Positions 20,073-56,422 of a DNA stretch of 64,000 nt are shown here, in pieces. The stretch comes from Pseudomonadota bacterium (GTDB lineage Bacteria; Pseudomonadota; Alphaproteobacteria; Rhodobacterales; Rhodobacteraceae). The notes under the pieces were generated by a model that worked only from the letters and a program-made list of their open reading frames with translations, was not told where the DNA came from and ran no database searches. The first letter of the stretch is position 1. Every line of letters begins with the position of its first letter. Made by a program: the position numbers and the translations under genes. The stretch spans positions 13,945 to 77,944 of the forward strand of contig JBCBHM010000007.1 of NCBI GenBank assembly GCA_038525585.1, read 5' to 3'.

Positions 20073-21530
20073 TCACCGGCTGTCGCGCGCCGAATAGTAT
20101 ATCAGCATCCCTACGGCCCAGATCAGGCTGGCGAAGATAGCCACCAGTGCCACCAGCAGCAGGCGCTGCGGATACTCGGACTGTTCTGCCAGGGTCGGGT
20201 TTATAAAGACCGCCAGATAACGGCTTTGCCGTTGCGCATTGGCACTGGCAATGTCTAACGCTGTGAGGCTTGCCCGATAGCTTTCCTCTGCAAACTGGCG
20301 ATCCACGAGCAATCCTTCGTATTCGGCCAGCAGGCTCGGGTAATCGGTGCCGTCGGCGGCTGCTGTACTGCTGGTCACTGTGCGCCGTTCTTCCTGAATA
20401 CGATTGCGGATCACTTCGATCAGCCGGCTGCTTTGCACGACACGGGGGTCATTGGCCGACGTTTGCTGGCCCAAAAGATCGCTTTCAACCAACGCTTCGG
20501 CCAATTGCTGTTGCAGGTTGTTGACCACACCGAGCCGACCTTGGAGATCCGTTTCCAGATCCACGATCTGAGTGCGCGTGCGGAAGCGGATCAAGGCTTC
20601 GCGCGCAGCTTTGAGCCTATTTAGAGACTGTTCGAGGTCCGATTGAGCATATCTGATCGCTTCATTCCGGGCGGTCTGGTTGAGCGCGTTGATCATGCTC
20701 TGGCTTTCATCCAGTACCGCGCGGGTCAACAGCTGCGCGGTCCGTGGTTCAAAGCTGAGGATCCGCAGATTAACCAACCCACTGGACTGGTCATAAGACA
20801 CCCGCGCCATCCGTCCCCAATACCAGGTCAGATCCTCGACTGTCGCATCGGGCCAGATCGAAAAGGCGGGGTCAGTGTCCCACGTCTGAGAGTAAAGCGA
20901 CACCAGATCATATTTTTCATTCAACCGGGCGACGAGCTCCTGGCTTTGAATAAATTCATAGAGGATGTCGTTGTCACTTTGGGTGCTGGATCCGCTGATC
21001 TGAGAGGCAAAACCGCCCAACAGATCGGTGCCGGACCCGCCGTCCTCGCGACGTACGGTAAACCCGGTGACAGAGGCAAACTGATCCGTGCTACGTGTCC
21101 ACAAATAGACTGCGGTCGTGGCGACAGGCACAAGAACGATCAGTGCAAAGATCAAGAGCCCGATCCAATGCCGCATCTCCATCTTGGCGCGGGGGGCTAC
21201 GGGTGCAATTTCGATGACCCGCGCGCCGGCTTTCGGAGGATGGGGTTTCGCGGACTTTGCGTGTGGCACGGGCGCTGGGGCGACCTCGGCCCGCGCCTCG
21301 GCTTTGGGGAGCTGATGCGCTACGTTGCTGGTCGTGTCTGGGCCTGTATCTGGGCCTTTATTTGGTTCTTGATCTGGGGAACGCCGCGAGGCAGGACCGT
21401 CGTGCGCGCTGTTGGTACGCTCTTGGTGCAGGGTCTTGACAGCCGTTTGGCTGGCCTGCGCGTTTGGGCCAGGGCGAAACCATCTCTGCTTCGGGGGGGT
21501 TTTCTCCGGATTGCTCACGGGTATACTCAC
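20073..21530 (-). CDS. kpsE: Capsule polysaccharide export inner-membrane (polysaccharide co-polymerase) protein, KpsE-like; N-terminal extension uncertain
   Basis: TM helix HWIGLLIFALIVLVPVATTAVYLW, a long coiled periplasmic region and a C-terminal TM (LLLVALVAIFASLIWAVGMLIYY). The track start is a GTG, and the first ~115 aa are Pro/Ala/Lys-rich low complexity. An alternative ATG (MEMRHW) would give about 368 aa. Confidence 0.75.
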   Translation of the reverse strand: MSIPVSNPEKTPPKQRWFRPGPNAQASQTAVKTLHQERTNSAHDGPASRRSPDQEPNKGPDTGPDTTSNVAHQLPKAEARAEVAPAPVPHAKSAKPHPPKAGARVIEIAPVAPRAKMEMRHWIGLLIFALIVLVPVATTAVYLWTRSTDQFASVTGFTVRREDGGSGTDLLGGFASQISGSSTQSDNDILYEFIQSQELVARLNEKYDLVSLYSQTWDTDPAFSIWPDATVEDLTWYWGRMARVSYDQSSGLVNLRILSFEPRTAQLLTRAVLDESQSMINALNQTARNEAIRYAQSDLEQSLNRLKAAREALIRFRTRTQIVDLETDLQGRLGVVNNLQQQLAEALVESDLLGQQTSANDPRVVQSSRLIEVIRNRIQEERRTVTSSTAAADGTDYPSLLAEYEGLLVDRQFAEESYRASLTALDIASANAQRQSRYLAVFINPTLAEQSEYPQRLLLVALVAIFASLIWAVGMLIYYSARDSR

Positions 21531-21640
21531 TTTATCGCGCTGTTCTAGCTATGTTATACGTCGCGCCCCATGCGGTCGAGGCGGAACCTGCCGCGAAAAG
21601 GCCGACCCGCGATGCCAAACAGAGGACACAGCAGCCCAGC

Positions 21641-22456
21641 ATGAGTGAATTTCCGTTGCCCTTGCCACCAGGCGGCGCCCAAAAGCCCCGCCAGAGTGCG
21701 GGTCGGTGGCGTACAGTGAGCGCGCTGATGCTGCGCGAAATGGGGTCGCGCTATGGGCGGTCGCCGGGAGGGTATCTATGGGCCATTCTGGAGCCCATAG
21801 GGATGATCATCATTATGGCCGTCGCCTTTTCCCTGCTCTTGCGGTCCCCGTCTTTGGGCAACAGTTTCATCCTGTTTTACGCCACGGGCTACGTGCCGTT
21901 TAATCTGTTCATCAAGATTTCGCAGACTGTTGCCGCAGGCATCCGCTATTCAAAGCCGTTGCTGACCTACCCGGCGGTCTCCTGGATCGACGCAATTTTC
22001 GCGCGTGCACTCTTGAACTTCCTGACCAATGCGCTGGTCGCCGTTATCCTGTTTGCGATGCTTATCGCCGTACTGGATCTGCAAGTGGTGTTCCGCATTG
22101 GTTTTGTGTTGGAAGCCTTCGCGATGGCGTTTTTGATGGGGCTTGGAATAGGAATGCTCAATTGCGTAATCATGGGATTTGTACCTGTTTGGGAGACGAT
22201 CTGGGGTATCATCACCCGGCCTCTTTTTCTAGCGTCGGGTGTGCTGATCATCTATGAGGACGTGCCGCGGACGGTACAGGAAATCCTGATCTGGAATCCG
22301 TTGCTGCACATCAGTGGTATCATGCGCATGGGGTTTTACTCGACCTATGCGCCACAATACATCTCGTATCCTTTTGTGCTTTTTGTGGCTCTGGCTCTTG
22401 TCGTTTTCGGCATGCTGCTGTTGCGTCGGCATTATCGGTGGCTGCTGCAGATCTAG
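21641..22456 (+). CDS. kpsM: Capsular polysaccharide ABC exporter, permease
   Basis: ABC-2 type permease: MLREMGSRYGRSPGGYLWAILEPIGMIIIMAVAF plus 6 TM segments, about 271 aa from the ATG at 21641. Divergent from kpsE-kpsT. Confidence 0.85.
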   Translation: MSEFPLPLPPGGAQKPRQSAGRWRTVSALMLREMGSRYGRSPGGYLWAILEPIGMIIIMAVAFSLLLRSPSLGNSFILFYATGYVPFNLFIKISQTVAAGIRYSKPLLTYPAVSWIDAIFARALLNFLTNALVAVILFAMLIAVLDLQVVFRIGFVLEAFAMAFLMGLGIGMLNCVIMGFVPVWETIWGIITRPLFLASGVLIIYEDVPRTVQEILIWNPLLHISGIMRMGFYSTYAPQYISYPFVLFVALALVVFGMLLLRRHYRWLLQI

Positions 22457-22459: not shown

Positions 22460-23443
22460 CTAAACTTGGGAAAGTGACGCAATTTCGGCATGGGTACGGC
22501 GTGTGTGCCCTCGTAGCCCGTCCATCAGAGCTATGCGGCAGAGCCGTTTATAGGCGCGTCGGTCGGTGTCGTGATAGTGTCGCTGCGCGTACCACCAGCG
22601 CGCCGCAAAGAGCGCCATGACAGGCCATATCAAAACCGGTCCAGCAGCAACGCGGTACATAAAGATGCGGTTGCGTTGCAGATAATACACCTTCCACAGC
22701 GGCGTGACGCTTGGCCCGGCTTGGGACATGGTGGCGCAGTCATGTTCAAAGCGTAGGCCTGCATCAAACATGATCTGCCCGCCTGCTTGTGACAGGGCGA
22801 GTGAAAACAACACATCATCGCCGTAAAGGAAGAGGTCGGCCCGCGGCAGCCCCGCCATTTCGATGGCTTTTCTGTGCAAGAACATGCCGACAAAAGAGCC
22901 GCCGTGCACCGCCTGTGGAGCTGAGGCGGTATAGCTGGTGTCCGGGACATGGAACCCGGCCCGTCCTCGTCGCAGCGTGGCAAGAGCTGTGCGCCAATCT
23001 GCGAACGGGCGCCGCCAGGGTCGGTTCATCTCGCACAGACTTCCATCAGGATAGTGCACCGCAGCCAGCCAGGCCTGGGCGTTATCGCGGGGCACAGCTG
23101 TGAAAGCGGCCAACGTGTCAGGCAGGGGGCGACCATCGTCATCCATCAGCACCACCCAATCACGGCCTGGTGCTTGGGTTGGCAGCGCCTGAAACGCAGC
23201 CAACCCTGATGCAAAGCCATTTGCCCCACCGCGATTTTCCGCCAGTGTTAAGGTCAAAATACGCGGGTCTGTCTGATCTGCCAGCCAGTCGCCCGTCCCA
23301 TCGGTCGACGCGCTATCAACCACGATCACGCGCGCCAGTACATGCTCGTCGCTGCTCAGCAGGGCCGCAAGCGTGGTTTGTAGTTGGGATAGGCGGTTAA
23401 ACGTGACCACAAGGGCGGTGATGGGGTTACGAGGTTGTCTCAC
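22460..23443 (-). CDS. Family 2 glycosyltransferase (rhamnosyl/galactofuranosyl-transferase-like)
   Basis: ITALVVTFNRLSQLQTTLAALL...VIVVDSASTDGT...NRGGANGF...LMDDDG is the GT-A fold with DDD. GTG start. Confidence 0.75.
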   Translation of the reverse strand: MRQPRNPITALVVTFNRLSQLQTTLAALLSSDEHVLARVIVVDSASTDGTGDWLADQTDPRILTLTLAENRGGANGFASGLAAFQALPTQAPGRDWVVLMDDDGRPLPDTLAAFTAVPRDNAQAWLAAVHYPDGSLCEMNRPWRRPFADWRTALATLRRGRAGFHVPDTSYTASAPQAVHGGSFVGMFLHRKAIEMAGLPRADLFLYGDDVLFSLALSQAGGQIMFDAGLRFEHDCATMSQAGPSVTPLWKVYYLQRNRIFMYRVAAGPVLIWPVMALFAARWWYAQRHYHDTDRRAYKRLCRIALMDGLRGHTRRTHAEIASLSQV

Positions 23444-24814: not shown

Positions 24815-25079
24815 CAACTGTGTTCCTGATTACGCCGAGATGGCTGGAATGTGGTGCAATCGGACCGTGCCGCGTGGGCATAATTTCCCCCGTAAACACC
24901 TGTGATTCCAAGATTAGCGTTCAGGTATCGCGAATGCCAACGTTATATTTTTGTTACCTTTTATGTCATGGTGTGGTGTACGCCTGCTTCGGCGCTCACC
25001 TTATTGGCGCGCGGGATCTTGGGTCGCTGTCATGTGGTGCTGTCAGAGCCTTAGATGACACGAATCCGTGCGCAAGCTA

Positions 25080-27104: not shown

Positions 27105-28256
27105 CTAAAAGGGCCCCGCCGAAAACACCGGCGGTTTTTCCCCCGACGCAAACGCATCCACACAGGCCTGGCCCAGATCCAGCGCTTCGCGGATGGTCAC
27201 GTCCATATCCAGGTACCGATAGGTGCCAAGGCGTCCGGCAAAGCTGACACCCTGCAGCTCTTTGGCCCGGGTCACGTAGTCTTGCAGCAGCGCTTTTTCC
27301 TCGACCAGTCGGATCGGGTAGTAGGGAATGTCGTCCGGGCCCGCCAACCGCGAGGTTTCGCGGTAACATGTGGTGCGTTCGTGCGTCTCCCAGGGGGCGA
27401 AGTGTTTGTGTTCGGTGATCCGCGTGTGCGCCACGTCCGCGTCTCCGTAATTCATCACTGGCGTGCCTTGGTAATCCCCCTCCGCCGTGAACCGCTCGAA
27501 ATCCAACGTCCGGTAGCCCAGCCGGCCCAAATCATGCCCAAAATAGGCGTCGAGCGGACCGGTATAGATCACATGATCCCCACGGTGCACATCCGGATCA
27601 TAGCGCGTGTTGAGCGTCACCTCGATGCCTGGATGATCTAGAATCGCGGCGACTAACGCGGTGTACCCATCACGGGGAATACCTTGATGGGGGTGGTCAA
27701 AATAGCTGTCGTCATAAGAAAACCGCAGCGGCAGGCGTTTGAGGATTGCCGCGGGCAGCGCGCTGGGGTGCACGCCCCATTGCTTTTGCGTGTAGCCCTT
27801 GAAGAATGCCTCGTAGAGCTCAGGGCCCACAAAGGCTAAGGCTTGCTCTTCAAAGCTTTGCGGGTCTTCGATGTTTTGATCGGCGCGGGCGGCGACAAAA
27901 GCGCGGGCCTCGTCCGGACCCATGGCCGTGCCGAAGAACTGGTTGATCAGCATCAGGTTCATGGGCAAGCCATAGACGCGACCGCCTACTGTGGTCTGCA
28001 CCCGGTGGCGGTAGGGTTCAAATCCCCCGAAACGGGTTACATACTCCCAGACTTCATCATCCCCGGTGTGAAAGATATGTGGCCCGTAGACATGGACCAT
28101 GACGCCGGTTTCAGGGTCGCGGGCGGTGTGGCAATTGCCTGCCACATGGTTGCGGCTTTCCAAGATGCTGACGCGGTGCCCGGCCTCGGCCAGCGAGCGA
28201 CCGGTCACAGCGCCTGAAAATCCTGCGCCGACTATAAGGACATGCCGCGCGCCCAT
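27105..28256 (-). CDS. glf: UDP-galactopyranose mutase
   Basis: 383 aa. FAD motif VLIVGAGFSGAV, then ESRNHVAGNCHT...VHVYGPHIFHT, which is characteristic of Glf. Confidence 0.9.
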   Translation of the reverse strand: MGARHVLIVGAGFSGAVTGRSLAEAGHRVSILESRNHVAGNCHTARDPETGVMVHVYGPHIFHTGDDEVWEYVTRFGGFEPYRHRVQTTVGGRVYGLPMNLMLINQFFGTAMGPDEARAFVAARADQNIEDPQSFEEQALAFVGPELYEAFFKGYTQKQWGVHPSALPAAILKRLPLRFSYDDSYFDHPHQGIPRDGYTALVAAILDHPGIEVTLNTRYDPDVHRGDHVIYTGPLDAYFGHDLGRLGYRTLDFERFTAEGDYQGTPVMNYGDADVAHTRITEHKHFAPWETHERTTCYRETSRLAGPDDIPYYPIRLVEEKALLQDYVTRAKELQGVSFAGRLGTYRYLDMDVTIREALDLGQACVDAFASGEKPPVFSAGPF

Positions 28257-29216
28257 TCAGCGGTCCGCATAGTAGCGATAGGTTTCGGCGATGGCTTGGG
28301 CAAAAGGGGTGATCATGTCACCCAGCAGGACGCGCACATCCTGCGGGTTGGCGATAACATCGCGCGGCTCGGTTGCCAAAAGATCTTTGGCGGGGATCTT
28401 GTCATAGGCAAGGGGTTTGCCGGTTGCGACCTCAATGGCCGCGACCACATCCATCAGCGTGGTGGAAGCGCCTGCGCCAAGCATGTTGACCGGGAGGGTG
28501 TCCTTCCCACTTTGCAGCCGGGCGGCCAATGTGGCAATCCCGCGGCCCACATCGCCGGCATAGATGAAATCGCGGCTTTGCTGACCATCGCCATTGATGG
28601 TCACCCGGTCGTCGGCAATGGCGGCACGGACAAAGGCGTGGATGGCGCTTTTCTTGTTGTCGGAAAACCGGCCAAAGACATTGGTCAGCCGCACCACACG
28701 GAATGTGCCACCGCGCAGCCCCACCAGCTTTTCCAGGATCATTTCCTCGGCCGCCTTGGTGGCCCCATAGAAGTTCTTGGGGCAATAAGAGCTATCCACA
28801 CGCACCTCAAAGGTGCCGTCAAAAAGCGCGCCTGCGGTGGACACGAGGATAAAGGCATCCCTCGGCTGCACTGCCTGCATGACAAAGCGGGAGGGGGCGG
28901 TGATATTGGCCTCGATGAAATCGAGCGGGCGGTCCTTCGATTCCGCTACCCGCGTCTCGCCGGCCAGAAACACAAAGACGCGTCCCCCCTCGGGAACCTC
29001 TTGCCCGGCGAGAAAGTCAAACGCCCCCGCATCGTCGTAGTTGCCGATGAAATTTGGCAGGCCGAGGGTGTCGTGTCCGGGCGCGGGGTTTGATAGGTTG
29101 TCGATCACCACGGGCGCCAACTGCGCCAGATCAGGCTCTTTGGCCACCGCCTCGAGGATATTGCGGCCAACAAAGCCGTATCCGCCAATGAGGGCCAGAA
29201 GGGATGCGTTTTTCAT
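28257..29216 (-). CDS. NAD-dependent sugar epimerase/dehydratase (extended SDR)
   Basis: Rossmann motif ALIGGYGFVGRN and catalytic YGATKAAEE (YxxxK). ATG at 29216. Its stop directly abuts the glf start. Confidence 0.75.
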   Translation of the reverse strand: MKNASLLALIGGYGFVGRNILEAVAKEPDLAQLAPVVIDNLSNPAPGHDTLGLPNFIGNYDDAGAFDFLAGQEVPEGGRVFVFLAGETRVAESKDRPLDFIEANITAPSRFVMQAVQPRDAFILVSTAGALFDGTFEVRVDSSYCPKNFYGATKAAEEMILEKLVGLRGGTFRVVRLTNVFGRFSDNKKSAIHAFVRAAIADDRVTINGDGQQSRDFIYAGDVGRGIATLAARLQSGKDTLPVNMLGAGASTTLMDVVAAIEVATGKPLAYDKIPAKDLLATEPRDVIANPQDVRVLLGDMITPFAQAIAETYRYYADR

Positions 29217-29304
29217 TGTCAATTCCAGAAAGAGAGGTTGGGGCCGCTATGACGGACGCGGCGAAGTCAGATGCGTGTGGACGGGCCGGGAGACCTCGGT
29301 TCGG

Positions 29305-30072
29305 CTATGACAGATCGCGTATGACAAGGCCGATCCCCATCCAGCGTTTTGGATTATGCGCGAATTCATACACATAATTGTCAAGCAGCGCGGTTCCCTT
29401 GACCTCTTCCCAAAGTCTGACTGTCCCACCATCATGCTTGTCATATTCATGTGCATGTATGTCGTGGAACCCATATGCGACGCGTGCGTGACGTCCGAGA
29501 TTGAGGTAGTCCTTTTTCGCCCCCATAAACGAGTGATCCCCGTCAATGAAAACATAGTCAAAAACCTGGCCTGCAAAGTCATCTGATGTTGCTGGCGCAG
29601 CTTTGATCAGGTTCAGGCGTTTGGCGAAGCGATCAAAGGCCACAAGGCGGTCCTGAATATCGATCATCGTGTAGGTCAGCCCCGGATTGGCGCGGGTCAG
29701 AATGGCGGCGGCCAAATAGGACGATCCGCCCCAAAACACACCGATCTCGGCGGCAGTCTGAAGCTTTAGCCTCGACAAGGTCATCAGATAATCCGTGAAT
29801 TCAGTAGGGATTTGCTGATGCCCGAATTTGGATGAGTTCATGTTGTCAGACCATCGCGCCCATGGCCGCCAGGGCATCCTGCACAGGCCAAATTCCAAAA
29901 CTTTTGACAGGATGAAACGGCGTGATGCAAACGCCTGGTCGCTGGCGGCGAGGATATCATCAACCACCTTCAGGGCCTTATCAACGTCTTTGGCGATCAG
30001 ACCTTCTTCCTGTTGTGCCGTTGTGTCGGTCAATTTACGGGCCACCTTTCTGACAGTGCTTTTGAGACGCAT
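29305..30072 (-). CDS. Class I SAM-dependent methyltransferase (sugar O-methyltransferase-like)
   Basis: AAEIGVFWGGSSYLAA is a motif-I-like sequence, and VFDYVFIDGDHSFMGAKKDY is typical of Methyltransf_24 / TylF-like enzymes. Confidence 0.6.
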   Translation of the reverse strand: MRLKSTVRKVARKLTDTTAQQEEGLIAKDVDKALKVVDDILAASDQAFASRRFILSKVLEFGLCRMPWRPWARWSDNMNSSKFGHQQIPTEFTDYLMTLSRLKLQTAAEIGVFWGGSSYLAAAILTRANPGLTYTMIDIQDRLVAFDRFAKRLNLIKAAPATSDDFAGQVFDYVFIDGDHSFMGAKKDYLNLGRHARVAYGFHDIHAHEYDKHDGGTVRLWEEVKGTALLDNYVYEFAHNPKRWMGIGLVIRDLS

Positions 30073-30229: not shown

Positions 30230-32839
30230 ATGACATCCCCCACAGATCTTTCGGTTGTTGTCACCGTTCATTCCGAGACATGTGTGGCGGGCCCCACCAT
30301 GCGCGCCGCTGACACGGCGATCGCGCAGGCGGAGGCGGCGGGACTGTCTGTCGAGCGGATGATTGCCTATGACAATCCCACGGCACGCGCGCGGACCTAT
30401 TTTGACCAGTCCGCCCTTGATCACTGGGACAGGCGGGATGTGAATGGCGGCGATCTGGGCCCCACGCGCAACGCCGTAGTCGCTGAACATGCCAAAGGCG
30501 CGGCCATTGCCTTTCTGGATGCGGATGATTTGTTTTCGCCGCATTGGCTGAGCCGTGGCATGGCGCGGTTGCGCGCGGCCGAGGCAGAGGGCCTGCGGCC
30601 TATCGTTCATCCGGAGGTGAATTGGCTCTTTGACGGGGCGGGTGCGGTCTATTGGAACCCGGATCAGGATGACCCGCTTTTTTCGCCACAGTATTTTTAC
30701 GTGTCGAACTACTATGACAGTCTGTGTCTGGCCCCCCGCGCGGCCCATCTGGAACACCCTTATGTGACCCGCGACATTGCGCGGGGCCTTTCCTTTCAGG
30801 ACTGGCAATTTGCGATTGAGACGATGGCGGCTGGCTGGCAGCATGTGTCGGCGCCCGGCACCATCATCTTCAAACGCCGCCGGGATGCTTCGCTGGTGAC
30901 TGAAAGTCGGGGACGGCAGGCCATCGTGCGCGACATGCGCGCGATGCGCATCGACCGGGTGGCGGACCTGGGGCGCACTGATGCTGCGTCTGCGCCTGCC
31001 GCACCGCCCCGTTTTGATGTTTCCATCGCAGCGTTGGCCGGTCTCAACGCCCGGGCCAGGACAGAAACCCCGCATTGGGGCACAGTCTTTCAGTCGCGTG
31101 TCCAGCGGGCCGAAGCGCGGCGCGCCATCACGCGCAACGCTTTGGCTGAGATGCCAAAGCGATTGGCCGCTTACGAGGCTGTGGCGAAGGTCTTTGACAC
31201 CGCTTTTTATCTGGCGGCCAATTCCGATGTCGCCGAACACGAAGATGTGGACCCGCTCCGTCACTACCTGCGTAGCGGACATAAGGAAGATCGCGAGCCG
31301 TCCCCGCTTCTGGGCACGCTCGCTTTGGCGCAACGATTGGCCGCGCCGGAGGGCAAGCCCGATACGGCCAGCGCCGTTTCCGATTGGCTGGGGCTTGATC
31401 CCGCGTCCCGGCCGCTGGCCTTTCCCTTTACACGCGGCGAGTCGCTGGCAAAGTGTATAGGCTCCGATCCGGCGCGACTGCAGGATCAGTGGGCAGCGCG
31501 TCATGTGGACTTGCGCGCGCGGCTTATGTTTGGGGATTTGGGGCAGGAAGTGGCTCTCACCGCTCAAACAGAGCCGCTTGTGACCCAAGGTTGGGCCGAG
31601 GCGTTGCAGATCAAGATCCCGGCGCTGCACAGCGAAATGTTTGTCACACGGCAAGCGGTTCTCGCCGATTTGCAGCGCGCCGCCGGGGGACGGCCCGCGC
31701 GCGCAGTGGTGCTCGTCAACCGCCCCCGCTTTGGCGGTGCGCGCAGAATGGAGGGACAGCTTGGCCACGCCCTGGCGGCTCGTTATGGCGCGGAAAACGT
31801 AGTTGTTGTCAGCACTGACAAACCCGGGAACATGCCGCCGGGCAAATTCCCGCCGGGCGTGCGTCATGTGGATCTGGCGGCGCTCACCATGCATGTACGC
31901 CCCCATATCCGGCTGCGCCTGATGGTGCTTTTTTTGCGCTCTCTGGGGCCGGAGGTCATCTTTAACGTCAACAGCCGCCGTTTCTGGGAAGCGATGGAGC
32001 CGTACGGGCAGGCGCTGGCCGTTTCATCTCATCTGGTGGGGTGCTTTTTATGTAATGAGCAGACAGTGCTGGGCCAGTGGACGGGCTACCCCTTGCGCCG
32101 CTTTTATCGCCATTTCGACGTTTTGGCCGCCGTCTGCACGGACAGTATTGCTTTGGCGTCTGAGTTGCGTTCGAGCTATATGTTGCCCGAAGGCGACCAG
32201 GACCGGGTGCAGGTCTTGGCCGCACCTGTGCGCGGTGACATCGCCTTGGCCCCCGCCCCGCGACACCCCCTTTTGGCCAGGCCGCGGCGGCAGGTTTTTT
32301 GGGCGGGCCGGATGGATCCGCAAAAGCGGGTTGATCTGGCATTGGAGGTGGCGCGCTTGATGCCGGACGTGCGGCTCCGTATGTGGGGAGACGTAGTGTC
32401 GGGCAGTGCGTTGGCTTGGCCAGACTTGCCCGAAAACGTGACCCTCGAAGGGGTCTATACTGACTTTGCCGAGCTGCCTTTGCACGAGGCGGATGCCTGG
32501 CTTTACACTTCGGGTTGGGATGGGGTGCCGCAGGTGCTTTTGGAAGTGGCCATGGCGGGCTTGCCGGTTGTGGCCAGTGACGTGGGTGGTGTAGCCGAGG
32601 CGTTGTGCCCTGATGGGGTTGATGCCGCGACTGCCCTGATGCCCCCGGAGGCAGGGCCAGAGGCCTATGCGGCAGCCTTGCGGGCGCTGTTTAAATCGGC
32701 CAAACCCGCCCGTCAGGCTGCGGCTGCCCGCCGCGCTCATCTGCTGGAGACCCGCACCGAGGCGGGGTATCACGCCGCAGTGGACCGGGTGCTAGATCGG
32801 CTTTGCCCGCAGCACAAAAGAGGCGGCGTGTATGGCTGA
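30230..32839 (+). CDS. Bifunctional glycosyltransferase: N-terminal GT2 domain fused to a C-terminal GT4-like domain (869 aa)
   Basis: Residues 1-250 (LSVVVTVHSE...AFLDADDLF) parallel 10580-11347. Residues about 330-869 (FDTAFYLAANSDVAEHEDVDPLRHY, VVLVNRPRFGGARRMEG, QVFWAGRMDPQKRVD, SGWDGVPQVLLEVAMAGLPVV) parallel 11344-13386. Confidence 0.8.
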   Translation: MTSPTDLSVVVTVHSETCVAGPTMRAADTAIAQAEAAGLSVERMIAYDNPTARARTYFDQSALDHWDRRDVNGGDLGPTRNAVVAEHAKGAAIAFLDADDLFSPHWLSRGMARLRAAEAEGLRPIVHPEVNWLFDGAGAVYWNPDQDDPLFSPQYFYVSNYYDSLCLAPRAAHLEHPYVTRDIARGLSFQDWQFAIETMAAGWQHVSAPGTIIFKRRRDASLVTESRGRQAIVRDMRAMRIDRVADLGRTDAASAPAAPPRFDVSIAALAGLNARARTETPHWGTVFQSRVQRAEARRAITRNALAEMPKRLAAYEAVAKVFDTAFYLAANSDVAEHEDVDPLRHYLRSGHKEDREPSPLLGTLALAQRLAAPEGKPDTASAVSDWLGLDPASRPLAFPFTRGESLAKCIGSDPARLQDQWAARHVDLRARLMFGDLGQEVALTAQTEPLVTQGWAEALQIKIPALHSEMFVTRQAVLADLQRAAGGRPARAVVLVNRPRFGGARRMEGQLGHALAARYGAENVVVVSTDKPGNMPPGKFPPGVRHVDLAALTMHVRPHIRLRLMVLFLRSLGPEVIFNVNSRRFWEAMEPYGQALAVSSHLVGCFLCNEQTVLGQWTGYPLRRFYRHFDVLAAVCTDSIALASELRSSYMLPEGDQDRVQVLAAPVRGDIALAPAPRHPLLARPRRQVFWAGRMDPQKRVDLALEVARLMPDVRLRMWGDVVSGSALAWPDLPENVTLEGVYTDFAELPLHEADAWLYTSGWDGVPQVLLEVAMAGLPVVASDVGGVAEALCPDGVDAATALMPPEAGPEAYAAALRALFKSAKPARQAAAARRAHLLETRTEAGYHAAVDRVLDRLCPQHKRGGVYG

Positions 32840-33770
32840 GATCATGCCTGATTTTGTTGTGGTGGGGCAGGGCAAGGCGGGCACGTCATTGCTTTATCGT
32901 CAGTTGCGGAAGGTGTCCGGAGTGGGTCTGTCCCACCCCAAGGAATTGCACTTTTTCAGCGCCAAGAATGCTGAGCCCGTTGCCTGGTACAAAGACCGGT
33001 TTGCCCATCTGGCTGATCAGGATGTGACGCGCGTGGGCGAGGTCTCTCCATCTTATCTCAAGCCGGGGGTCGCGCAAAAAATAGCGAACCTTCTGGGGCG
33101 CGACATCCAGATCATATTCATTCTGCGCCATCCGGTCGAACAGGCCTATTCCCGTTACCTGCAAAACATCTGCGCCACCCAGAAAGGTGATACGTTTGCC
33201 CCGATCATGGAGCGTGCATCCGTGCGTTTGAACACCTTCTTTTCTGCCATTGCGGAGTATTATGAGATTTTCGGACCGGACCGTATCCTGCCGCTTGTCT
33301 TTGAACGCGATGTGGCGGTGCCGGGCGAGATCTATCTGCAGCGGGTACTGGCGTTTGTCGGAATGGGCGATGTGATGCCCGCCTTGCCAACGCGCGAGGT
33401 GAATTCTGGGGTCATGCCGCGCTATCTTTATAGCGGGTCCAATCCGCTTCACCTTACGGCGGCGGGTGCCCGGTATACGGTGCCGCCCGAGACGCTTGTC
33501 TTTTGCGCCCAGGAGCGCAACAGCGCGGTGGTGACCGAGCCTAGGAAACAGGACGCGCTGCGCGCCTTTCGCAATCAGAGCGCCTGGACCACCGACGTGA
33601 CCATGCAAGAATATACCCGGTGGCACGCGGCGCATGTGCGCCCCTTTGCTGCGCGGCTTGAGACGGCGTTTGGGCTGGACCTGTCGGTCTGGGAAGGGCG
33701 CGCGCGGGATCTGTCCTATCCTCTTGCCCCGCCGCCCAAGGCCCTGCTGTCCCCGGGTCAGCCATCGTGA
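32832..33770 (+). CDS. Sulfotransferase (PAPS-dependent, Sulfotransfer_1/3-like)
   Basis: 5'-PSB loop DFVVVGQGKAGTSLLY and 3'-PB-like FILRHPVEQAYSRY. 8-nt overlap with the upstream transferase gene. Confidence 0.75.
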   Translation: MAEIMPDFVVVGQGKAGTSLLYRQLRKVSGVGLSHPKELHFFSAKNAEPVAWYKDRFAHLADQDVTRVGEVSPSYLKPGVAQKIANLLGRDIQIIFILRHPVEQAYSRYLQNICATQKGDTFAPIMERASVRLNTFFSAIAEYYEIFGPDRILPLVFERDVAVPGEIYLQRVLAFVGMGDVMPALPTREVNSGVMPRYLYSGSNPLHLTAAGARYTVPPETLVFCAQERNSAVVTEPRKQDALRAFRNQSAWTTDVTMQEYTRWHAAHVRPFAARLETAFGLDLSVWEGRARDLSYPLAPPPKALLSPGQPS

Positions 33771-34453
33771 GCCGGCTCACGCCAATGCCTGCCGCCCGGT
33801 TCTTGCGTTCCTTGCATATCTGCCGGCGTCACAATGTGGCCTATGTGAACAATGCCAAAGTGGCCTGTTCCTCAATCAAGCTGGCGTTGCAGCGTGCGCA
33901 AACCGGCGATCCGACTTATCAGCCGCCTTTGGGCGTGCATGACTGGAAAAGCTCGCCCCTGATCACGGCCCGCGACTTGACGCAAGAGAACTGGGCAGAT
34001 GCGCTGAAGGGCTGTTTTGTCTTCAGCTTCGTACGCTCGCCCTGGGCGCGGCTGCGCTCGGCCTATCTCAACAAGATCGTGACGGGCCAAAAACAAGGGG
34101 GATTTCGCACCCAGCTCGGGTTTGATGCTGATACGTTGCCCAGTTTCGAGGCATTCGTGTATGCGCTTGGATGGCAGGATCCGGCGGGCATGAACGCTCA
34201 TTGGCGACCGCAGTGGATCAACATCTCGCATGACGTGATACATTTTGATTTCGTTGGCCGATTGGAAGAGGTGCAAGAGGATTGGGCGCATGTGGCAGCG
34301 CTCACCGGGCTCGATCCCGTGCTCCCTCGTGCCGGCAAGCGCACCGGCTGGCATCCCGACGCATTGCCGTTCGATGCAGCCATGGCGGATGTGGTGCATA
34401 GAATTTATGCTGAGGACTTTGCGCGCTTCGATTACCCACTCACCCCCTCTTGA
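33767..34453 (+). CDS. Sulfotransferase family 2 protein
   Basis: YVNNAKVACSSIKLAL and FSFVRSPWARLRSAYLNKI match the two PAPS-binding blocks of Sulfotransfer_2. GTGA overlap with the previous gene; an alternative ATG is at 33785. Confidence 0.7.
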   Translation: MSRLTPMPAARFLRSLHICRRHNVAYVNNAKVACSSIKLALQRAQTGDPTYQPPLGVHDWKSSPLITARDLTQENWADALKGCFVFSFVRSPWARLRSAYLNKIVTGQKQGGFRTQLGFDADTLPSFEAFVYALGWQDPAGMNAHWRPQWINISHDVIHFDFVGRLEEVQEDWAHVAALTGLDPVLPRAGKRTGWHPDALPFDAAMADVVHRIYAEDFARFDYPLTPS

Positions 34454-34702
34454 CCCTGTGGGACTTCGAGGAGGTGCCATACCGTAACCACTTTGCCATG
34501 CCCTTACTGCTCTCGGGACGACTTTGGCATGTCGTTGCGTGGGTTCGGGCGCTCTCTAGCCAACGGTCACCCCGTCCACCCTGCCGGAATTTTTGAACAA
34601 CATCGTATGGGCTCGACCACCCCAGTTCGGTCGGATTTCTTCGACCACCCAACCTGCGCTTTTTGCCATGCCGACGAGGGCTGTTTCGGTAAACAACCAC
34701 CA

Positions 34703-35307
34703 TCAGGGAGTGTAGTCGGTATCGTCGAACTTATAGGGTTTGTTGATCCCCCAGATCGGCGAGCGATTCTTGCGTGCATAATGTTCGGTAAAGACCGCCT
34801 TTTGCATATCCGTCATGGTCGGTATAAAAATCACCTCTCCACCGGTCAGCTCGAGAACCCCGGCACTGTTTTGGATTTTGTGGGGGATACTGGCTGTTGT
34901 CATGATACAATGTTCACGGGTAACGGAGCGGAGGGCTTGCAGATATTGAATGGGGTTCGGGCAGTGATAGAGAATGCCCGAGCTGTGCGTCACATCAAAA
35001 GCTTGGCACTTAGAATGCATGATATCTACGGACAGGGCACGGTAATTTTCGATCCCTTTTCGGCCATGCGTTTGCGAAATTCGCCCCACCATTTGTTCAA
35101 TGGGAGCGGGATGTCGATCATCGTGACCGATTTGCGGCCGTACCTATGGGCTGTGCTGACACGTTCTTCTTTTGCGCTCTAGAGCTCGCCAATTTCGGCA
35201 AAGGATTAATCTTTAACCAAAGCTTGGAAATGCTCGTCGCGCGTATCTTTTTGGATTGTCATTTTGTAAAAAGCCCCGGCCAAAATCCGTCTCAATTCGT
35301 CCTCCAT
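34703..35307 (-). pseudogene. Class I SAM methyltransferase pseudogene (frameshifted, internal stops), lower GC
   Basis: ORF 34703-35092 carries FDVTHSSGILYHCPNPIQYLQALR. The expected upstream motif I (GRKSVTMIDI) lies in a different frame. A further upstream piece starting at ATG 35307 (MEDELRRILAGAFYK...) ends in TAA. Confidence 0.45.
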
Positions 35308-35388
35308 GTGTTTCACTGGGGCGGAGACGAAGTCAAGCGGATAGCCAGACCCGGACTTGCGTGTGTCCACCTGAGTCGCCTGGCCTGA

Positions 35389-36144
35389 TTATGCCTTGCG
35401 CCGCACGAGTTTGCCGTTCTCAAAGTGGATACCGCATTCGATCTTTTCGGTGTCGGCCCAGCGGCCCGCACGGGCGTCTTCACCCGGGTTGACGGCGCGC
35501 GTGCAGGGCGCGCAACCTACCGACAGATAACCGCGTGCCTTCAGGGGATGTTCGGGCAGACCATGGTCCCGGTAATGGGCCTCAACATCTTCGGTGCTCC
35601 AGTCCAGCAACGGGTTAAGTTTCAGCCAGCGGTCCTGGCTTTCAAATAGGGTCATGTCCGCACGCGTAGCCGCTTGGCCGCGCTTGCGGCCCGTGATCCA
35701 ACAATCAAGCCCGCGCAGGGCTTTGAGCATGGGAATAGTCTTGCGCACATGACAGCACAGATCGGGGTTGCGCGCGTGCAGCGTGCCATCGCCATCATCT
35801 GCGGCCACCGCATCTGACCGGGGGCGCACCAGCTGGATGTTGCATAGACCCAGTTCGGCAATCAGCTGGTCACGGTAGGCAAGCGTTTCGGGAAAATGTT
35901 TCCAGGTATCGAGAAAGATGACTGGGACATACGGGTCAATACGCGCCACCATATGGAGCGTCACCGCCGCCTCGGTACCAAAGGACGACACCAGCCCGAT
36001 GCGCCCTGAAAAGTGTTTGCGAATAGCCTGGTCCAGCACCTCTTGGGCGCTCCGCCCGGCAAATTGATCGTTTAGGTCTGCGGCGCGGGCACGCAAATTG
36101 CTTCTTTGGCTGGTTTCCAATGCCTGCTGTTGCGGATCCATCAT
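35389..36144 (-). CDS. cysH: Assimilatory APS/PAPS reductase, Fe-S cluster type
   Basis: LVSSFGTEAAV is a PP-loop-like sequence. The Cys pair NPDLCCHVRK plus SVGCAPCT (CC...CxxC) is diagnostic of the 4Fe-4S class. The catalytic C-terminal motif is ECGIH. Start at MMDPQQ (36144); the 395-aa track ORF overruns into sqdB. Confidence 0.85.
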   Translation of the reverse strand: MMDPQQQALETSQRSNLRARAADLNDQFAGRSAQEVLDQAIRKHFSGRIGLVSSFGTEAAVTLHMVARIDPYVPVIFLDTWKHFPETLAYRDQLIAELGLCNIQLVRPRSDAVAADDGDGTLHARNPDLCCHVRKTIPMLKALRGLDCWITGRKRGQAATRADMTLFESQDRWLKLNPLLDWSTEDVEAHYRDHGLPEHPLKARGYLSVGCAPCTRAVNPGEDARAGRWADTEKIECGIHFENGKLVRRKA

Positions 36145-36344
36145 ACAGGTCCTTTGCGTCAATGCCTGACGATACCATGCGGCCCACAGCGCTGGCCAGC
36201 ACCAGTCTGGTTTTGACCGATGACATAAGGTGAAGCGCCTATACTTTTTGCAAATTGCGGGTGGCCATGGCCCATGGGTCTGGTCCCGTTGGGATGTATT
36301 TTCGTTCAGGCCCGAGCCCGACCGGTTTACAGGGACATCTGTGG

Positions 36345-36376
36345 GACGGCGGGCAGCCAGAGTGCTGCCTGCCGTC
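36345..36376 (-). terminator. GC-rich hairpin just downstream of the sqdB stop (no clear U-tract)
   Basis: gacggcgggcagc cagagt gctgcctgccgtc, a 13-bp stem with one mismatch. Confidence 0.3.
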
Positions 36377-36382
36377 TGGCCC

Positions 36383-37540
36383 TTAGCTCCACTTGGACAC
36401 GCACGGGATCTTGGTCGTATCGCAGCGGTCCTTGTATTTCTGGGCGATCTCGCGCACCTCGGCCAGCACGCCGTCCGACAGCTTGATCGGCTCGAGCCCC
36501 AAGCCCAAGAAGCGATCATTCGCCACGTGCAGGTCGTTTTCCGCCGCCTCGTTGCGAGGGTTGTCCAGATAGGCAATTTCTGCGCCCATCAGATCGTGGA
36601 TCATCTGTGCCAGATCCCGCACCCGATGGGTTTCGGTCATCTGGTTAAGGATGTTCACGCGTTCGCCCTTTTGCGGCGGGTTTTCCAGCGCCAGCTCAAT
36701 GCAGCGGCACGTATCCTGGATGTGGATGAACGCGCGGGTCTGTCCGCCTGTGCCATGTACGGTCATCGGGTATTCCACCGCCGCCTGCATCAGGAACCGA
36801 TTCAGCACGGTGCCGTAATCACCATCGTAGTCAAAGCGGTTGATGAGCCGGTCATCCATGCGCGTCTCGTCTGTTTGGGTGCCCCAAACAATGCCCTGGT
36901 GCAGATCGGTGATCTTGACCCCATCATTCTTGTTATAAAAGTGGAAGAACAGCTGATCCTGGCTTTTGGTCATGTGATAGATCGAGCCGGGGTTCGTGGG
37001 ATAGAGGATTTCCTGTTCGCTCTCGCCCTCGGGCGTGTCGATGCGCACTTTCAGATAGCCCTCGGGGATCTGCATGCCGGCGGTGCCATAGCCGTACACC
37101 CCCATGGTGCCCAGGTGCACCAGGTGGATATCAAGTCCCGATTCCACGATCGCGGCCAGCACGTCATTTGTGGCGTTGAGGTTGTTGGAAACTGTATAGC
37201 GTTTGTGGGTGCTCGACTTCATCGAATAGGGGGCTGCGCGCTGCTCGGCAAAGTGGATGACGGCATCAGGCTCTTCTTCTTTGAAGAGTGTCAGCAGACG
37301 GTGATAGTGTTCGCCCACGGTGAAGTTTTCGAACTTGATTTCCTTGCCGGTCAGTTCCTTCCAGACCCGCAGGCGTTCGCCGATGGGGCGGATGGGGGTG
37401 AGGCTGTCCACCTCGAGCTCGACGTCGATATTCCGGCGGCTGAGGTTGTCGACAATGATGACATCGTGCCCGCGCTGCGACAGGTGCAGTGCGTTGGGCC
37501 AGCCACAAAACCCGTCTCCGCCCAAAATAACAATCTTCAT
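36383..37540 (-). CDS. sqdB: UDP-sulfoquinovose synthase
   Basis: 385 aa: [15 protein letters not shown]..., [27 protein letters not shown] (YxxxK), [33 protein letters not shown] recognise this as the strongly conserved SqdB/SQD1 sequence. Confidence 0.88.
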
Positions 37541-38148: not shown

Positions 38149-39534
38149 ATGAGCAAGCTAGATGAAATAAAGCAGAATTTCCTTGACGGGAAAAAAATAA
38201 TAAGCCCCAAACACATTTCGAGTTCAGACCGTCAACTTGCAGCTGACTTGTTTCAAAACTTGGAAGAAGTTTCAATTGTGGAAGACAATGCGCTTCGTCG
38301 AAAGATGGTCCATTTCCTTCTCCAGGTAATCTACTATTCAGAGGGTTATGATGGATATCAAAATGCATTTTTATTGATCACGCAAAAGATATCAGAAGCG
38401 GACTGGATCTCGGCGCATCTTGATATCCTGACAGCTGATGCGCGATTTGACGATCTGCTAAAGCTCACCAAGGAGCGTGCTGAAAGAGCCCCAAACAATC
38501 ATTGGATTTGGCGACGTCATTTGCATTCCTTACTCGCTGCCGCAGAGGTAGCTGAAGCGATTACTTTTGCTGAGGATCGTATCAAAAAGATTTATTTTGA
38601 AAATCCAAAAAGTCTCATACATAACAGTTTACGCACAGCTATACGGCTGCTTGTTTCCGTTAAATCCTTCAATACGATCGTCAAACAGTATTCAAAAGCG
38701 TCTGAAGAGATCGCACACCACCTGGGGGGCACAATACCTGAGCCAACAATGGTTGAGCAGGATGAAAGCGTATTTCAGATTTATGTGCTGAACCTCGACC
38801 GCGATGCGCACCGTTTTCGTCGTTTTAAAGGGCTACTGAACGGAAAACACCTTGTTAACCGTGTGCCGGGTGTTCCGGGCGCGTCCGTGCCACGTGCCCT
38901 AACGAATGCTGCCGGATTAAAGATCGATGTTCCTAGACCAGCAATGATTGGGTGTCATTTGTCGCATTTGCACGCATGGGAAAAGATTTCCATGTCCTGC
39001 GAACCCGGTGAATATGCCTTGGTTATGGAAGACGATGCGCAGTTTGTTTTCGGGCCGGGCGCTGGCCTTGACAGAGCAGCCAACATTGCGCGCACAAACG
39101 GGTTGGATTTAATGTTCATCAACGAAAACGCTGTGAAAGCAGCGCAAAATTTGAATGCTCGTGATGTCTATAGTCCTGACGAAGTTTTCTTCAACCTAGA
39201 TCGTGGTGCTAAAGCTCCAAAAACGTGGGGTGGAGAGGCTTACATGGTTTCCGCAGAAGGCGCCAAGAAGCTAATCCAATTTGAGCTAAAACTAGGCATT
39301 GTAGCTCCATTGGATTACCAGCTGGCCTTGTGCGGAATAAAAGATCTAAACAACGTGGATCCGGATTGTGTATATGGTAATCTGGCAAAACAAATATCTA
39401 ATAGCAGTAACTTGCCTAAAATTCATTCAGCGATTTATAGCATGCCTTTGGCGCTGGCAATGCCATATGGCTTTATATCACATTTAATGGAGCAAATTTC
39501 CTTCAAACAATCTGTCGTTACACATAATGAATGA
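38149..39534 (+). CDS. Family 25 glycosyltransferase with N-terminal helical (TPR-like) domain, low GC
   Basis: The C-terminal half FQIYVLNLDRDAHRFRRF...VPGVPGA...MIGCHLSHLHAWEKI...YALVMEDDAQF matches Glyco_transf_25 blocks. The N-terminal ~200 aa are helical repeats. A spot count on line 38161-38220 gave 21/60 G+C. Confidence 0.6.
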   Translation: MSKLDEIKQNFLDGKKIISPKHISSSDRQLAADLFQNLEEVSIVEDNALRRKMVHFLLQVIYYSEGYDGYQNAFLLITQKISEADWISAHLDILTADARFDDLLKLTKERAERAPNNHWIWRRHLHSLLAAAEVAEAITFAEDRIKKIYFENPKSLIHNSLRTAIRLLVSVKSFNTIVKQYSKASEEIAHHLGGTIPEPTMVEQDESVFQIYVLNLDRDAHRFRRFKGLLNGKHLVNRVPGVPGASVPRALTNAAGLKIDVPRPAMIGCHLSHLHAWEKISMSCEPGEYALVMEDDAQFVFGPGAGLDRAANIARTNGLDLMFINENAVKAAQNLNARDVYSPDEVFFNLDRGAKAPKTWGGEAYMVSAEGAKKLIQFELKLGIVAPLDYQLALCGIKDLNNVDPDCVYGNLAKQISNSSNLPKIHSAIYSMPLALAMPYGFISHLMEQISFKQSVVTHNE

Positions 39535-39703: not shown

Positions 39704-39825
39704 TGATCCCGCCCCCTGAAGTGGTCCTTCGCTATGTTTAGGAAAACTGAGGAAACACATGGCCAACGAGCGATCAAAGGCCGAAGAGACTGTCACGAAG
39801 TTGCGGCAGGTTGCGGTCCACCTCG
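39704..39825 (+). mobile_element. IS3-family left-end remnant (same IS type as copies A and B), + orientation
   Basis: TGATCCCGCCCCCTGAAGTGGTCCTTCGCTATGTTTAGGAAAACTGAGGAAACAC ATG GCC AAC GAG..., encoding MANERSKAEETVTKLRQV. Compare copy B: TGATCCTGCCCCACCGAAGTGGTCCTCCGCTACGTTTAAGAAAACGGAGGCAACAC ATG, encoding MANKRPKPEEPVTKLRQV. Homology is lost after about 120 bp. Confidence 0.65.
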
Positions 39826-56397: not shown

Positions 56398-56422
56398 GAC
56401 ACGGTCCTGTGAATGATCTGCA

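Follow-up and report, generated by a model that had tools for sequence, protein, structure and literature searches.

A paired sqdB-cysH cassette in marine Rhodobacterales that may supply UDP-sulfoquinovose to a sulfated surface polysaccharide

Introduction

In Alphaproteobacteria, the UDP-sulfoquinovose synthase SqdB is the first enzyme of the pathway that makes sulfoquinovosyl diacylglycerol (SQDG), encoded in Rhodobacter sphaeroides and Sinorhizobium meliloti by sqdB-sqdD-sqdC together with sqdA. Here we analyse a sqdB gene that stands in a different setting: a 64-kb stretch of contig JBCBHM010000007.1 (the window, ~60% G+C) from a metagenome-assembled genome (MAG) of a Rhodobacterales bacterium of the roseobacter group, in which sqdB is followed by cysH, the gene of an adenosine 5'-phosphosulfate (APS) reductase, inside a polysaccharide region. 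The first enzyme and its presumed product are those of the SQDG pathway, and both kinds of locus occur in Rhodobacterales, but the window has neither sqdD (a glycosyltransferase (GT) of family GT8, 267-292 amino acids (aa)) nor sqdC near sqdB, and its SqdB is 385 aa long instead of 405-406. Moreover, this type of sqdB is linked to cysH, sulfotransferases, a fused GT2-GT4 transferase, a DUF4422-GT8 fusion, glf and kps genes, whereas the sulfolipid loci lack cysH and sulfotransferases. The only paper on Rhodobacteraceae sqdB that we found reads the alphaproteobacterial cluster as a sulfolipid pathway alone (bioRxiv 10.1101/2022.08.18.504050).

The only established use of sulfoquinovose outside sulfolipids is archaeal, in the N-glycan of Sulfolobus, and depends on Agl3 (PMC8987622). 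The Agl3 system likewise directs UDP-sulfoquinovose to a surface glycan that is not a lipid, but it differs from the locus studied here in being archaeal, in serving protein N-glycosylation and in using a distant homologue (archaeal plasmid copies are ~33% identical). To our knowledge, neither a dedicated APS reductase nor sulfotransferases have been reported with Agl3. In plants, the plastid APS reductase is the source of sulfite for SQD1, and the window would follow the same logic, a CC..CxxC-type reductase turning APS into sulfite that is then built into UDP-sulfoquinovose; the two plant enzymes, however, are not co-encoded as a unit and their product goes to SQDG, whereas the window genes are physically paired.

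Two further groups of surface-glycan loci can be compared. Group 2-like (kps) capsule loci share with the window KpsM-like and KpsT-like genes, a tentatively assigned KpsE-like gene and cytoplasmic modification enzymes, and the GT2-GT4 protein, with its GT-A and GT-B folds, resembles the capsule polymerases that build alternating disaccharides; unlike these loci, the window has no detected kpsC, kpsS or kpsD and its polymerase-like protein belongs to a narrow, uncharacterised family. In rhizobia, sulfated glycans involve NodH with NodPQ, and LpsS, which sulfates lipopolysaccharide (LPS) and K-antigen, and ATP sulfurylase and APS kinase are co-encoded to provide 3'-phosphoadenosine 5'-phosphosulfate (PAPS). 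The window resembles these systems in that PAPS-type sulfotransferases stand in an alphaproteobacterial surface-glycan locus with dedicated sulfur-activation genes, but differs from them in co-encoding an APS reductase and SqdB, which would imply a carbon-sulfur bond besides sulfate esters.

From a comparison of the window with its relatives we propose that the cassette is a dedicated supply line from APS through sulfite to UDP-sulfoquinovose, serving a surface polysaccharide that would also be O-sulfated, a reading of the sequences that we favour with moderate confidence. The enzymes are already known; what is new is their recruitment into a conserved cassette that predicts a new glycan chemistry.

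Results

Two clades of SqdB with different neighbours

The right-hand block of the locus, on the minus strand and read leftwards from 37540, consists of sqdB, cysH and a short methyltransferase-like open reading frame (ORF). The gene identities in the locus are strong profile matches for which chance is excluded. The two genes that concern us most are:

36383..37540, minus strand: sqdB, UDP-sulfoquinovose synthase, 385 aa (Pfam Epimerase E 4e-23; NCBIfam E 6e-101; SQD1 match)
35389..36144, minus strand: cysH, thioredoxin-dependent Fe-S APS reductase, 251 aa (PAPS_reduct E 2e-38; 238 bp downstream of sqdB)

Residues 2-382 of the window SqdB align to residues 3-381 of Arabidopsis SQD1 (PDB 1qrr; 326 bits, E 3e-96), and the TMG, YHxxK, EQR and QG (HQGIVWG) motifs are all kept, each position being conserved in at least 108 of 109 aligned homologues from both of the clades described below. 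The [ST]MG...Yx3K signature listed for SQD1/Agl3 (PMC8987622) is also present, and its Tyr is followed by a His. Identity to the SqdB of S. meliloti, whose sqdBDC operon has been defined by genetics, is 64.5%. The description of this sqdB as well conserved in the initial annotation is borne out by the full-length SQD1 match and the complete set of catalytic motifs, and sequence thus supports a UDP-sulfoquinovose synthase with the predicted reaction UDP-glucose + sulfite to UDP-sulfoquinovose.

The window was compared with 80 species loci (one genome per species), with two plasmids and with a further five loci that were arrived at independently, from the GT2-GT4 protein; numbers such as L001, L006 or L023 are labels of related sqdB loci. 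Contigs identical or nearly identical to the window are present in several metagenome assemblies. SqdB is 79-95% identical to the window protein in the 80 species loci and down to 75% in those sampled through GT2-GT4, the closest named relatives coming from a Pseudomonadota MAG (95%) and Roseovarius mucosus (93%). This 385-aa clade, hereafter the window type, spans Rhodobacterales, Roseibium and other Hyphomicrobiales, Hyphomonas, Henriciella, Caulobacterales-like MAGs, Parasphingopyxis (Sphingomonadales) and, in Gammaproteobacteria, Gilvimarinus; complete genomes that carry it include Sulfitobacter sp. LCG007, OY969718.1, CP051231.1 and Aquisalinus flavus CP042288.1. When plasmids were searched by tblastn, a second SqdB group emerged at 64-65% identity, 405-406 aa long, and it is this sulfolipid type that is followed by genes for a GT8 (SqdD) and a short-chain dehydrogenase/reductase (SDR; SqdC) in S. 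meliloti, on a Loktanella salsilacus plasmid and on Marinovum algicola pMaD5, an arrangement also present in a metagenome contig and a Marivivens MAG. The sulfolipid-type lineage is itself large in Rhodobacterales. In a neighbour-joining (NJ) tree the 385-aa clade, the window protein included, stands cleanly apart from the sqdBDC-type proteins, so that the two clades can be distinguished by length (385 versus 405 aa) and by sequence.

The neighbouring genes differ as well. All five sulfolipid-type loci contain sqdD and sqdC, and none contains cysH, a sulfotransferase or GT2-GT4. No SqdD homologue (E<1e-6) was detected in the 64-kb window or within 10 kb on either side in the 80 related loci, a SqdC query gave only generic matches of ~30% identity in the window and related loci, and no homologue of the GT4 adjacent to sqdB in Microbulbifer (SqdX-like; E<1e-8) was detected in the window or in any related locus over the same distance. 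Across more than 85 loci, there was not one case of a 385-aa sqdB beside sqdD, sqdC or a SqdX-like gene. The lack of an adjacent sqdD, sqdC or sqdX, pointed out when the sequence was first annotated, thus holds for the entire window and, as far as sqdD and SqdX-like genes are concerned, for its 80 relatives. The two types can even occur in a single species: one assembly of L. salsilacus has the window type, with cysH, GT2, and Epimerase/GDP_Man_Dehyd-type and ManC-type genes typical of GDP-sugar pathways, and another strain has sqdBDC on a plasmid.

These data bear on an alternative in which the window sqdB is an ordinary sulfolipid gene, SqdB feeding SQDG or another glycolipid through unlinked sqdD, sqdC, sqdA or SqdX while its location is incidental. 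All SQDG producers share SqdB and no other step, and in the systems known so far sqdA already lies apart from the other genes (bioRxiv 10.1101/2022.08.18.504050). The Microbulbifer SqdB (74% identical), sister to the 385-aa clade in the NJ tree, is encoded upstream of a lipid-type GT4, so that close relatives can serve glycolipid synthesis, and in about a third of the loci (24 of 73) candidate polysaccharide transferases are missing from the vicinity of sqdB. A sulfolipid role nevertheless appears decidedly unlikely to us: the clade is distinct and never adjoins the sulfolipid genes, it shares an operon with GT2-GT4 and sulfotransferases in several genera, it is found in all five loci sampled in reverse (see below) and on small polysaccharide plasmids, and the same genera, as well as one of the same species, possess a separate sqdBDC operon. 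We consider it likely that this sqdB serves something other than classical SQDG.

An APS reductase paired with SqdB

The window CysH scores 273 bits against NCBIfam NF002537 (cut-off 154) and 132.6 bits against PF01507, and its best PDB match is the APS reductase of Mycobacterium tuberculosis (7lhr). It contains the motifs CCHVRK and GCAPCT, which hold the CC...CxxC Fe-S ligands, and ECGIH, which holds the catalytic Cys, and these cysteines are invariant in 31 aligned sequences. A score above the cut-off together with the Fe-S and catalytic cysteines identifies an APS reductase, the product of which is sulfite. A cysH gene with exactly these motifs had been noted immediately downstream of sqdB, and it is present there.

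To place this pair in context, the neighbours of sqdB were clustered, cluster representatives were annotated, and tblastn was used to score features within 10 kb of window-type sqdB in those loci, 73 in number, that measure 12 kb or more. cysH is found in 25 of the 73, and in 20 loci besides the window it lies directly 3' of sqdB on the same strand, starting 12-458 bp away. On a 41-kb plasmid of Pelagovum pacificum SM1903 the gap between the two genes is 20 bp, with a DUF4422-GT8 gene and an ATP-binding cassette (ABC) permease gene nearby, and on a 103-kb plasmid of Rhodobacteraceae strain M382 the order is sqdB, sulfotransferase, cysH. In twelve of the loci with cysH, sulfotransferase genes are missing from the neighbourhood, which indicates that cysH tracks sqdB and not the sulfotransferases.

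The sqdB-linked gene also differs from the copy expected for assimilation. Plasmid-borne cysH of Rhodobacterales that lies away from sqdB belongs to a cysG/cobA-DUF2849-cysI-cysH-DUF934 operon (Falsirhodobacter, Rhodovulum), and this housekeeping CysH is 50-53% identical to the window protein. The sqdB-linked CysH proteins of Rhodobacterales, Roseibium and a Hyphomicrobiaceae MAG group apart from cysI-linked CysH in a NJ tree, which with its two references is indicative; the sqdB-linked copies of Henriciella and Caulobacterales are more divergent and may be independent recruitments. The sequences are thus indicative of a sqdB-linked CysH paralogue distinct from the housekeeping cysI-cysH copy. 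The window cysH is without this housekeeping context and has no sulfite reductase partner, since profile scans of the 64 kb found no cysI, nor any cysG, cysDN or cysC. For an APS reductase without sulfite reductase, placed right behind a sulfite-consuming SqdB, the simplest reading is a supply of sulfite to SqdB, and CysH would then be its dedicated source. The dedicated sulfite supply suggested in the initial annotation gains weight from the 20 other loci with cysH behind sqdB, from the separate CysH branch and from the missing sulfite reductase partner.

A different chemistry may be envisaged, in which the SqdB reaction would end at UDP-glucose-5,6-ene or involve a different nucleophile or nucleotide sugar, and CysH would serve only to balance the APS/PAPS flux for the sulfotransferases. 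SQD1/Agl3-type enzymes are indeed 5,6-dehydratases when sulfite is absent (PMC8987622), the window SqdB scores below the NCBIfam equivalog cut-off, and sulfotransferases are frequent neighbours. However, identity to the experimentally defined S. meliloti SqdB is 64-65%, all catalytic and substrate-contact motifs checked are conserved in at least 108 of 109 sequences, cysH follows sqdB in 12 loci where no sulfotransferase is near, and an APS reductase without sulfite reductase yields sulfite, the very co-substrate of SqdB; we therefore find this chemistry highly improbable.

Some further observations concern the pair and its surroundings. A CysQ-like gene of the inositol-monophosphatase family (3'-phosphoadenosine 5'-phosphate phosphatase) is near sqdB in 3 of the 73 loci; in some Caulobacterales-like MAGs it stands directly after sqdB (L075 and L083) or beyond cysH (L079). 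It is another sulfur-nucleotide housekeeping gene recruited to the locus. The gap between sqdB and cysH in the window opens, directly after the sqdB stop, with a GC-rich, near-perfect hairpin without T tract (36340-36380, minus strand), for which attenuator, stabiliser and weak terminator are all conceivable roles. It was not flagged by consensus scans for promoters and terminators, which over the window performed no better than on shuffled sequence, and no Rfam match for a riboswitch or other RNA element between the two genes was obtained in the window.

A GT2-GT4 transferase and two sulfotransferases linked to sqdB

A plus-strand operon (30230-34453) converges on sqdB-cysH, with a minus-strand ORF between the two:

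30230..32839, plus strand: GT2-GT4, GT-A (GT2-like) + helical linker + GT-B (GT4) (Pfam; AlphaFold model)
32832..33770, plus strand: sulfotransferase, Sulfotransfer_3/1, 312 aa (PF13469 36.8 bits, cut-off 27)
33767..34453, plus strand: sulfotransferase, Sulfotransfer_2 (carbohydrate type), 228 aa (PF03567 E 9e-20, 72.3 bits, cut-off 22)
34703..35092, minus strand: probable class I S-adenosylmethionine (SAM) methyltransferase remnant, C-terminal part only (sub-threshold Methyltransf_31/Methyltransf_9, E ~3e-4)

All genes named in the initial annotation are thus present, the order that it gave running from right to left, as read on the minus strand. Its decayed methyltransferase exists as an ORF, but with a sub-threshold match (E 3e-4) the methyltransferase identity is weakly supported; the segment is missing from the closest relative, L006, where only ~30 bp separate cysH from the sulfotransferase gene.

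The GT2-GT4 and Sulfotransfer_3 genes overlap by 8 bp and the two sulfotransferase genes by 4 bp, and all three are translationally coupled. Both sulfotransferases, described beforehand as PAPS-type, score above the Pfam gathering threshold. The 312-aa protein matches PDB 3rnl (E 1.5e-11) and the heparan sulfate 3-O-sulfotransferase (HS 3-OST) 3A1 (E 7e-9), and its 5'-phosphosulfate-binding motif (GKAGTS) and 3'-phosphate-binding motif (RHPVEQAYS) align with those of 3rnl and HS 3-OST; in the 228-aa protein, which has no PDB match, KVACSS and RSPWARLRSAY can be read from the sequence as PAPS motifs. At least one sulfotransferase, from several families, is present in 28 of the 73 loci, and Sulfotransfer_2 homologues adjoin sqdB in L023, L032, L035, L049, L051, L081 and L132. 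The overlaps with GT2-GT4 suggest that the acceptor of the two window enzymes would be the polysaccharide of this locus. Another protein of ~235 aa (cluster 10), without Pfam match, is encoded directly upstream of DUF4422-GT8 in 17 loci, among them L010, L013, L017, L031, L036, L071 and L074; its counterpart in L131 carries a Sulfotransfer_4 match, and cluster 10 may be another divergent sulfotransferase family.

The fused GT2-GT4 transferase had also been recognised from the outset. In its AlphaFold model (pLDDT 91.7, pTM 0.91), a helical linker joins an N-terminal GT-A domain to a complete GT-B domain; the DADD motif of the GT-A domain is kept, E772 is invariant and E790 is found in at least 90% of sequences. 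A PDB fold search matches the GT-B half to the retaining UDP-sugar GT4 enzymes BshA, MshA, WbnH and PglA, a generic similarity, and the NCBIfam search assigned GT2-GT4 to no specific family. The family is small: a set of 5.8 billion proteins contains ~60 full-length clusters of it, and nearly all of these come from Rhodobacterales. The known users of UDP-sulfoquinovose, SQD2 and SqdX, are retaining GT4 enzymes, which by analogy makes the GT4 half of GT2-GT4 the best candidate for a sulfoquinovosyltransferase. GT2-GT4 is accordingly a candidate polymerase and a candidate user of UDP-sulfoquinovose, its similarities being generic.

GT2-GT4 and window-type sqdB are linked whichever of the two is taken as the starting point. 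From sqdB, the GT2-GT4 family is found in 24-27 of the 73 loci, the DUF4422-GT8 fusion in 24 and either of them in 40. From GT2-GT4, a reverse sample of five loci (Leisingera, Ruegeria, Shimia abyssi and two MAGs) has a window-type sqdB downstream in every case, 75-88% identical, on the same strand and either immediately adjacent or after two sulfotransferase genes. A metagenome scan with the GT2-GT4 alignment gave at least three true relatives among the matches listed, one of them with a sulfotransferase gene and a partial sqdB, which is too thin for a reverse test. Finally, the co-directional string GT2-GT4, sulfotransferase, sulfotransferase, sqdB, in some cases followed by cysH, is seen in L023, L032, L035, L051 (Tropicibacter naphthalenivorans DSM 19561, where cysH completes it), L081 and L132, and the window and L006 differ from it only by the inversion of the sqdB-cysH pair. 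These gene strings, together with the reverse sample, argue for a surface glycan that would contain both sulfoquinovose and sulfate esters, as had been suggested for this locus. Besides T. naphthalenivorans, the cassette has cultured carriers in Roseovarius mucosus DSM 17069, Shimia abyssi, a Leisingera strain and P. pacificum SM1903.

A second copy of GT2-GT4 in the window is split (minus strand; GT4 11344-13386, GT2 part 10622-11347), lies in a segment of 52-53% G+C and is flanked by integrase-core fragments (9574-9915 and 14338-14700). Several related loci carry two or three GT2-GT4 paralogues.

Export genes and the destination of the glycan

To the left of the operon follow genes for a methyltransferase, a GalE-like SDR, glf, two RTX proteins, a GlfT1-like GT2, kpsM, KpsE-like, kpsT and a GT61-like protein. 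The export genes lie ~8 kb left of the GT2-GT4 operon:

19413..20066, minus strand: kpsT-like ABC ATPase (PF00005 E 8e-15; 71% identity to the ATPase cluster of related loci)
20073..21530, minus strand: KpsE-like export protein, 485 aa, between kpsT and kpsM (position and 52% identity to cluster 11 of related loci)
21623..22453, plus strand: kpsM-like ABC-2 permease (PF01061 E 5e-15; 50% identity to the permease cluster near sqdB elsewhere)

The initial annotation had placed sqdB in a kpsMTE capsule locus. kpsM and kpsT are clear matches and KpsE, an ORF without Pfam match, is tentatively assigned from position and from homology to its equivalent in related loci; kpsC, kpsS and kpsD, on the other hand, were not found in the window, nor was there a match in it to the Wza-like cluster of other loci. 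KpsM/T/E are present in 20 of the 73 loci and glf in 15, and kpsT, kpsE and kpsM recur beside the cassette in L131, L017, L021, L032 and L065.

The glycan may be real but not a capsule: it could be LPS O-antigen or core, exopolysaccharide (EPS), or a decoration of the neighbouring RTX proteins, the kpsMTE genes serving another polymer. Besides the missing kps genes and the limited spread of KpsM/T/E, the RTX proteins found in 19 of the 73 loci, the LPS-type GT25 and DUF4422-GT8 genes, and the archaeal S-layer N-glycan as the sole established case of a glycan with sulfoquinovose would fit such a destination. We nonetheless hold it unlikely, as an ABC-transporter-dependent pathway accommodates both the cytoplasmic location of the sulfotransferases and a polymerase-like transferase with two domains, kps genes recur beside the cassette, and glycosylation of type I-secreted proteins finds no support. 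The export route is still the weakest link of the mechanism proposed here, and the polymer could be bound for LPS or EPS.

RTX calcium-binding repeat proteins are encoded in the window at 15410-17923, 23492-24817 and 25080-26930 and also in L131 and L132. A CAP domain is present in some of them, and in one locus a type I secretion system is encoded alongside. These proteins might be secreted surface or S-layer-like proteins that bind an anionic polymer through calcium, or polymer-modifying enzymes.

Other genes and the borders of the region

The remaining polysaccharide genes near the cassette are:

22460..23443, minus strand: GT2 with weak GlfT1-like (galactofuranosyltransferase) similarity (Pfam GT2; NF050113 E 2e-17, below cut-off)
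27105..28256, minus strand: glf, UDP-galactopyranose mutase (PF03275 E 2e-72; TIGR00031 294 bits, just under the cut-off of 303.75)
28257..29222, minus strand: GalE-like SDR nucleotide-sugar epimerase/dehydratase (Pfam Epimerase E 4e-24; PDB epimerase/dehydratase matches)
29305..30072, minus strand: SAM methyltransferase (Methyltransf_24), divergent from GT2-GT4 (PF13578 29.8 bits, cut-off 26.3; kept in L001 and L006)
38149..39534, plus strand: GT25-like glycosyltransferase, divergent from sqdB (PF01755 E 4e-6)

Homologues of the GalE-like SDR (56-77% identity) adjoin GT2-GT4 or GLF in many loci. The GT25-like gene looks recently acquired: the segment 38001-40000 has 45.6% G+C, against ~60% for the genome, and the gene is found only in the same-species contigs L001-L003.

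The entire polysaccharide module, 24.5 kb that begin with the first RTX gene and end with that of GT25, stands between the arms (15151-15252 and 39712-39813) of a 102-nt inverted repeat, 88% complementary. The left arm sits in a decayed element of the IS3 insertion-sequence family (14338-15316), of which fragments of OrfA and one of rve are left. As a composite unit, the module may have changed its place in the past or may be capable of inversion. Neither tRNA genes nor integrases were found at the borders of the polysaccharide region. In several related loci the cassette has genes of RepA/ParA-like proteins and replication initiators on its flanks.

Further out, a DUF2793 protein (8294-9418; cluster 9) belongs to a kind that recurs beside window-type sqdB, the plasmids of Pelagovum and M382 being among the examples. 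An rmlA-rmlD-rmlB-rmlC operon for dTDP-rhamnose (59395-62745) lies ~20 kb from the cassette; such operons are a hallmark of the polysaccharide loci on roseobacter 'biofilm plasmids'. The window also contains a general stress response module (4683-8043), with a PhyR-type anti-anti-sigma response regulator, an extracytoplasmic function (ECF) sigma factor and a HWE/HisKA_2 histidine kinase, and a 713-aa protein (55435-57576) with bacterial type IB topoisomerase domains in its C-terminal half and a long unannotated N-terminal region.

Discussion

The comparative data suggest the following working scheme. The CysH paralogue would reduce APS to sulfite, which SqdB would join to UDP-glucose to give UDP-sulfoquinovose. 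GT2-GT4, likeliest through its retaining GT4 half, would then put sulfoquinovose into the glycan, a part that DUF4422-GT8 may play in other loci, and galactofuranose derived from the activities of the GalE-like SDR and Glf is probably in the same chain. The two PAPS-dependent sulfotransferases would O-sulfate the chain in the cytoplasm, and the polymer, possibly also O-methylated, would be exported by the KpsM/KpsT ABC transporter with its KpsE-like partner.

Several points weigh against this scheme. About two thirds of the window-type loci are without cysH, and the 24 loci that have neither candidate transferase within 10 kb include some in which sqdB lies amid unrelated genes. The window SqdB scores 338 bits against a cut-off of 575 for the NCBIfam equivalog NF041015, with end-to-end coverage, although this cut-off seems tuned to a narrower group. 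The closest outgroup gene, that of Microbulbifer, precedes a lipid-type GT4, with which the GT4 domain of GT2-GT4 shares only generic similarity (BLASTP E 0.002). Both SqdB types were sought in one assembly and were not found together: a Loktanella-like protein of the sulfolipid type (P0121) comes from a metagenome only, and the Marivivens MAGs with the sulfolipid and window types are different assemblies. As 64 kb of this genome are in view, sqdD, sqdC, sqdA or sqdX could be present, unlinked, elsewhere. On the export side, a Pfam search of the ~45 larger ORFs detected neither Capsule_synth nor Poly_export, in line with the missing kpsC, kpsS and kpsD. The support comes from comparative genomics only, and sulfoquinovose in a bacterial polysaccharide is not described in the open-access literature and preprints that we searched, where an older report available by subscription only could have escaped us. 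The sqdB-cysH pairing is likewise not described in those sources.

Extended to the whole clade, the proposal is that many roseobacters and further alphaproteobacteria of the sea, 70 species or more in the genome collection, make a sulfoquinovose-containing, O-sulfated surface polysaccharide by means of CysH-SqdB and GT2-GT4, a generalisation that we regard as evenly poised. If true, a carbon-sulfur sulfonate sugar would be seen here for the first time in a bacterial glycan. The pairing of cysH with sqdB would also back, on genetic grounds, the long-standing assumption that SQD1/SqdB receives its sulfite from APS reductase, and the small GT2-GT4 family would become a candidate family of sulfoquinovosyltransferases.

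Sulfoquinovose is among the most abundant organosulfur compounds and is thought to derive almost entirely from the SQDG of phototrophs. The polysaccharide proposed here would add a heterotrophic, non-lipid source of this sugar in the ocean and a new class of polymer in the marine sulfur cycle. Metagenomic counts of sqdB would then mix two functionally different clades, and part of the environmental sqdB signal that is read as sulfolipid potential would instead be capsule potential.

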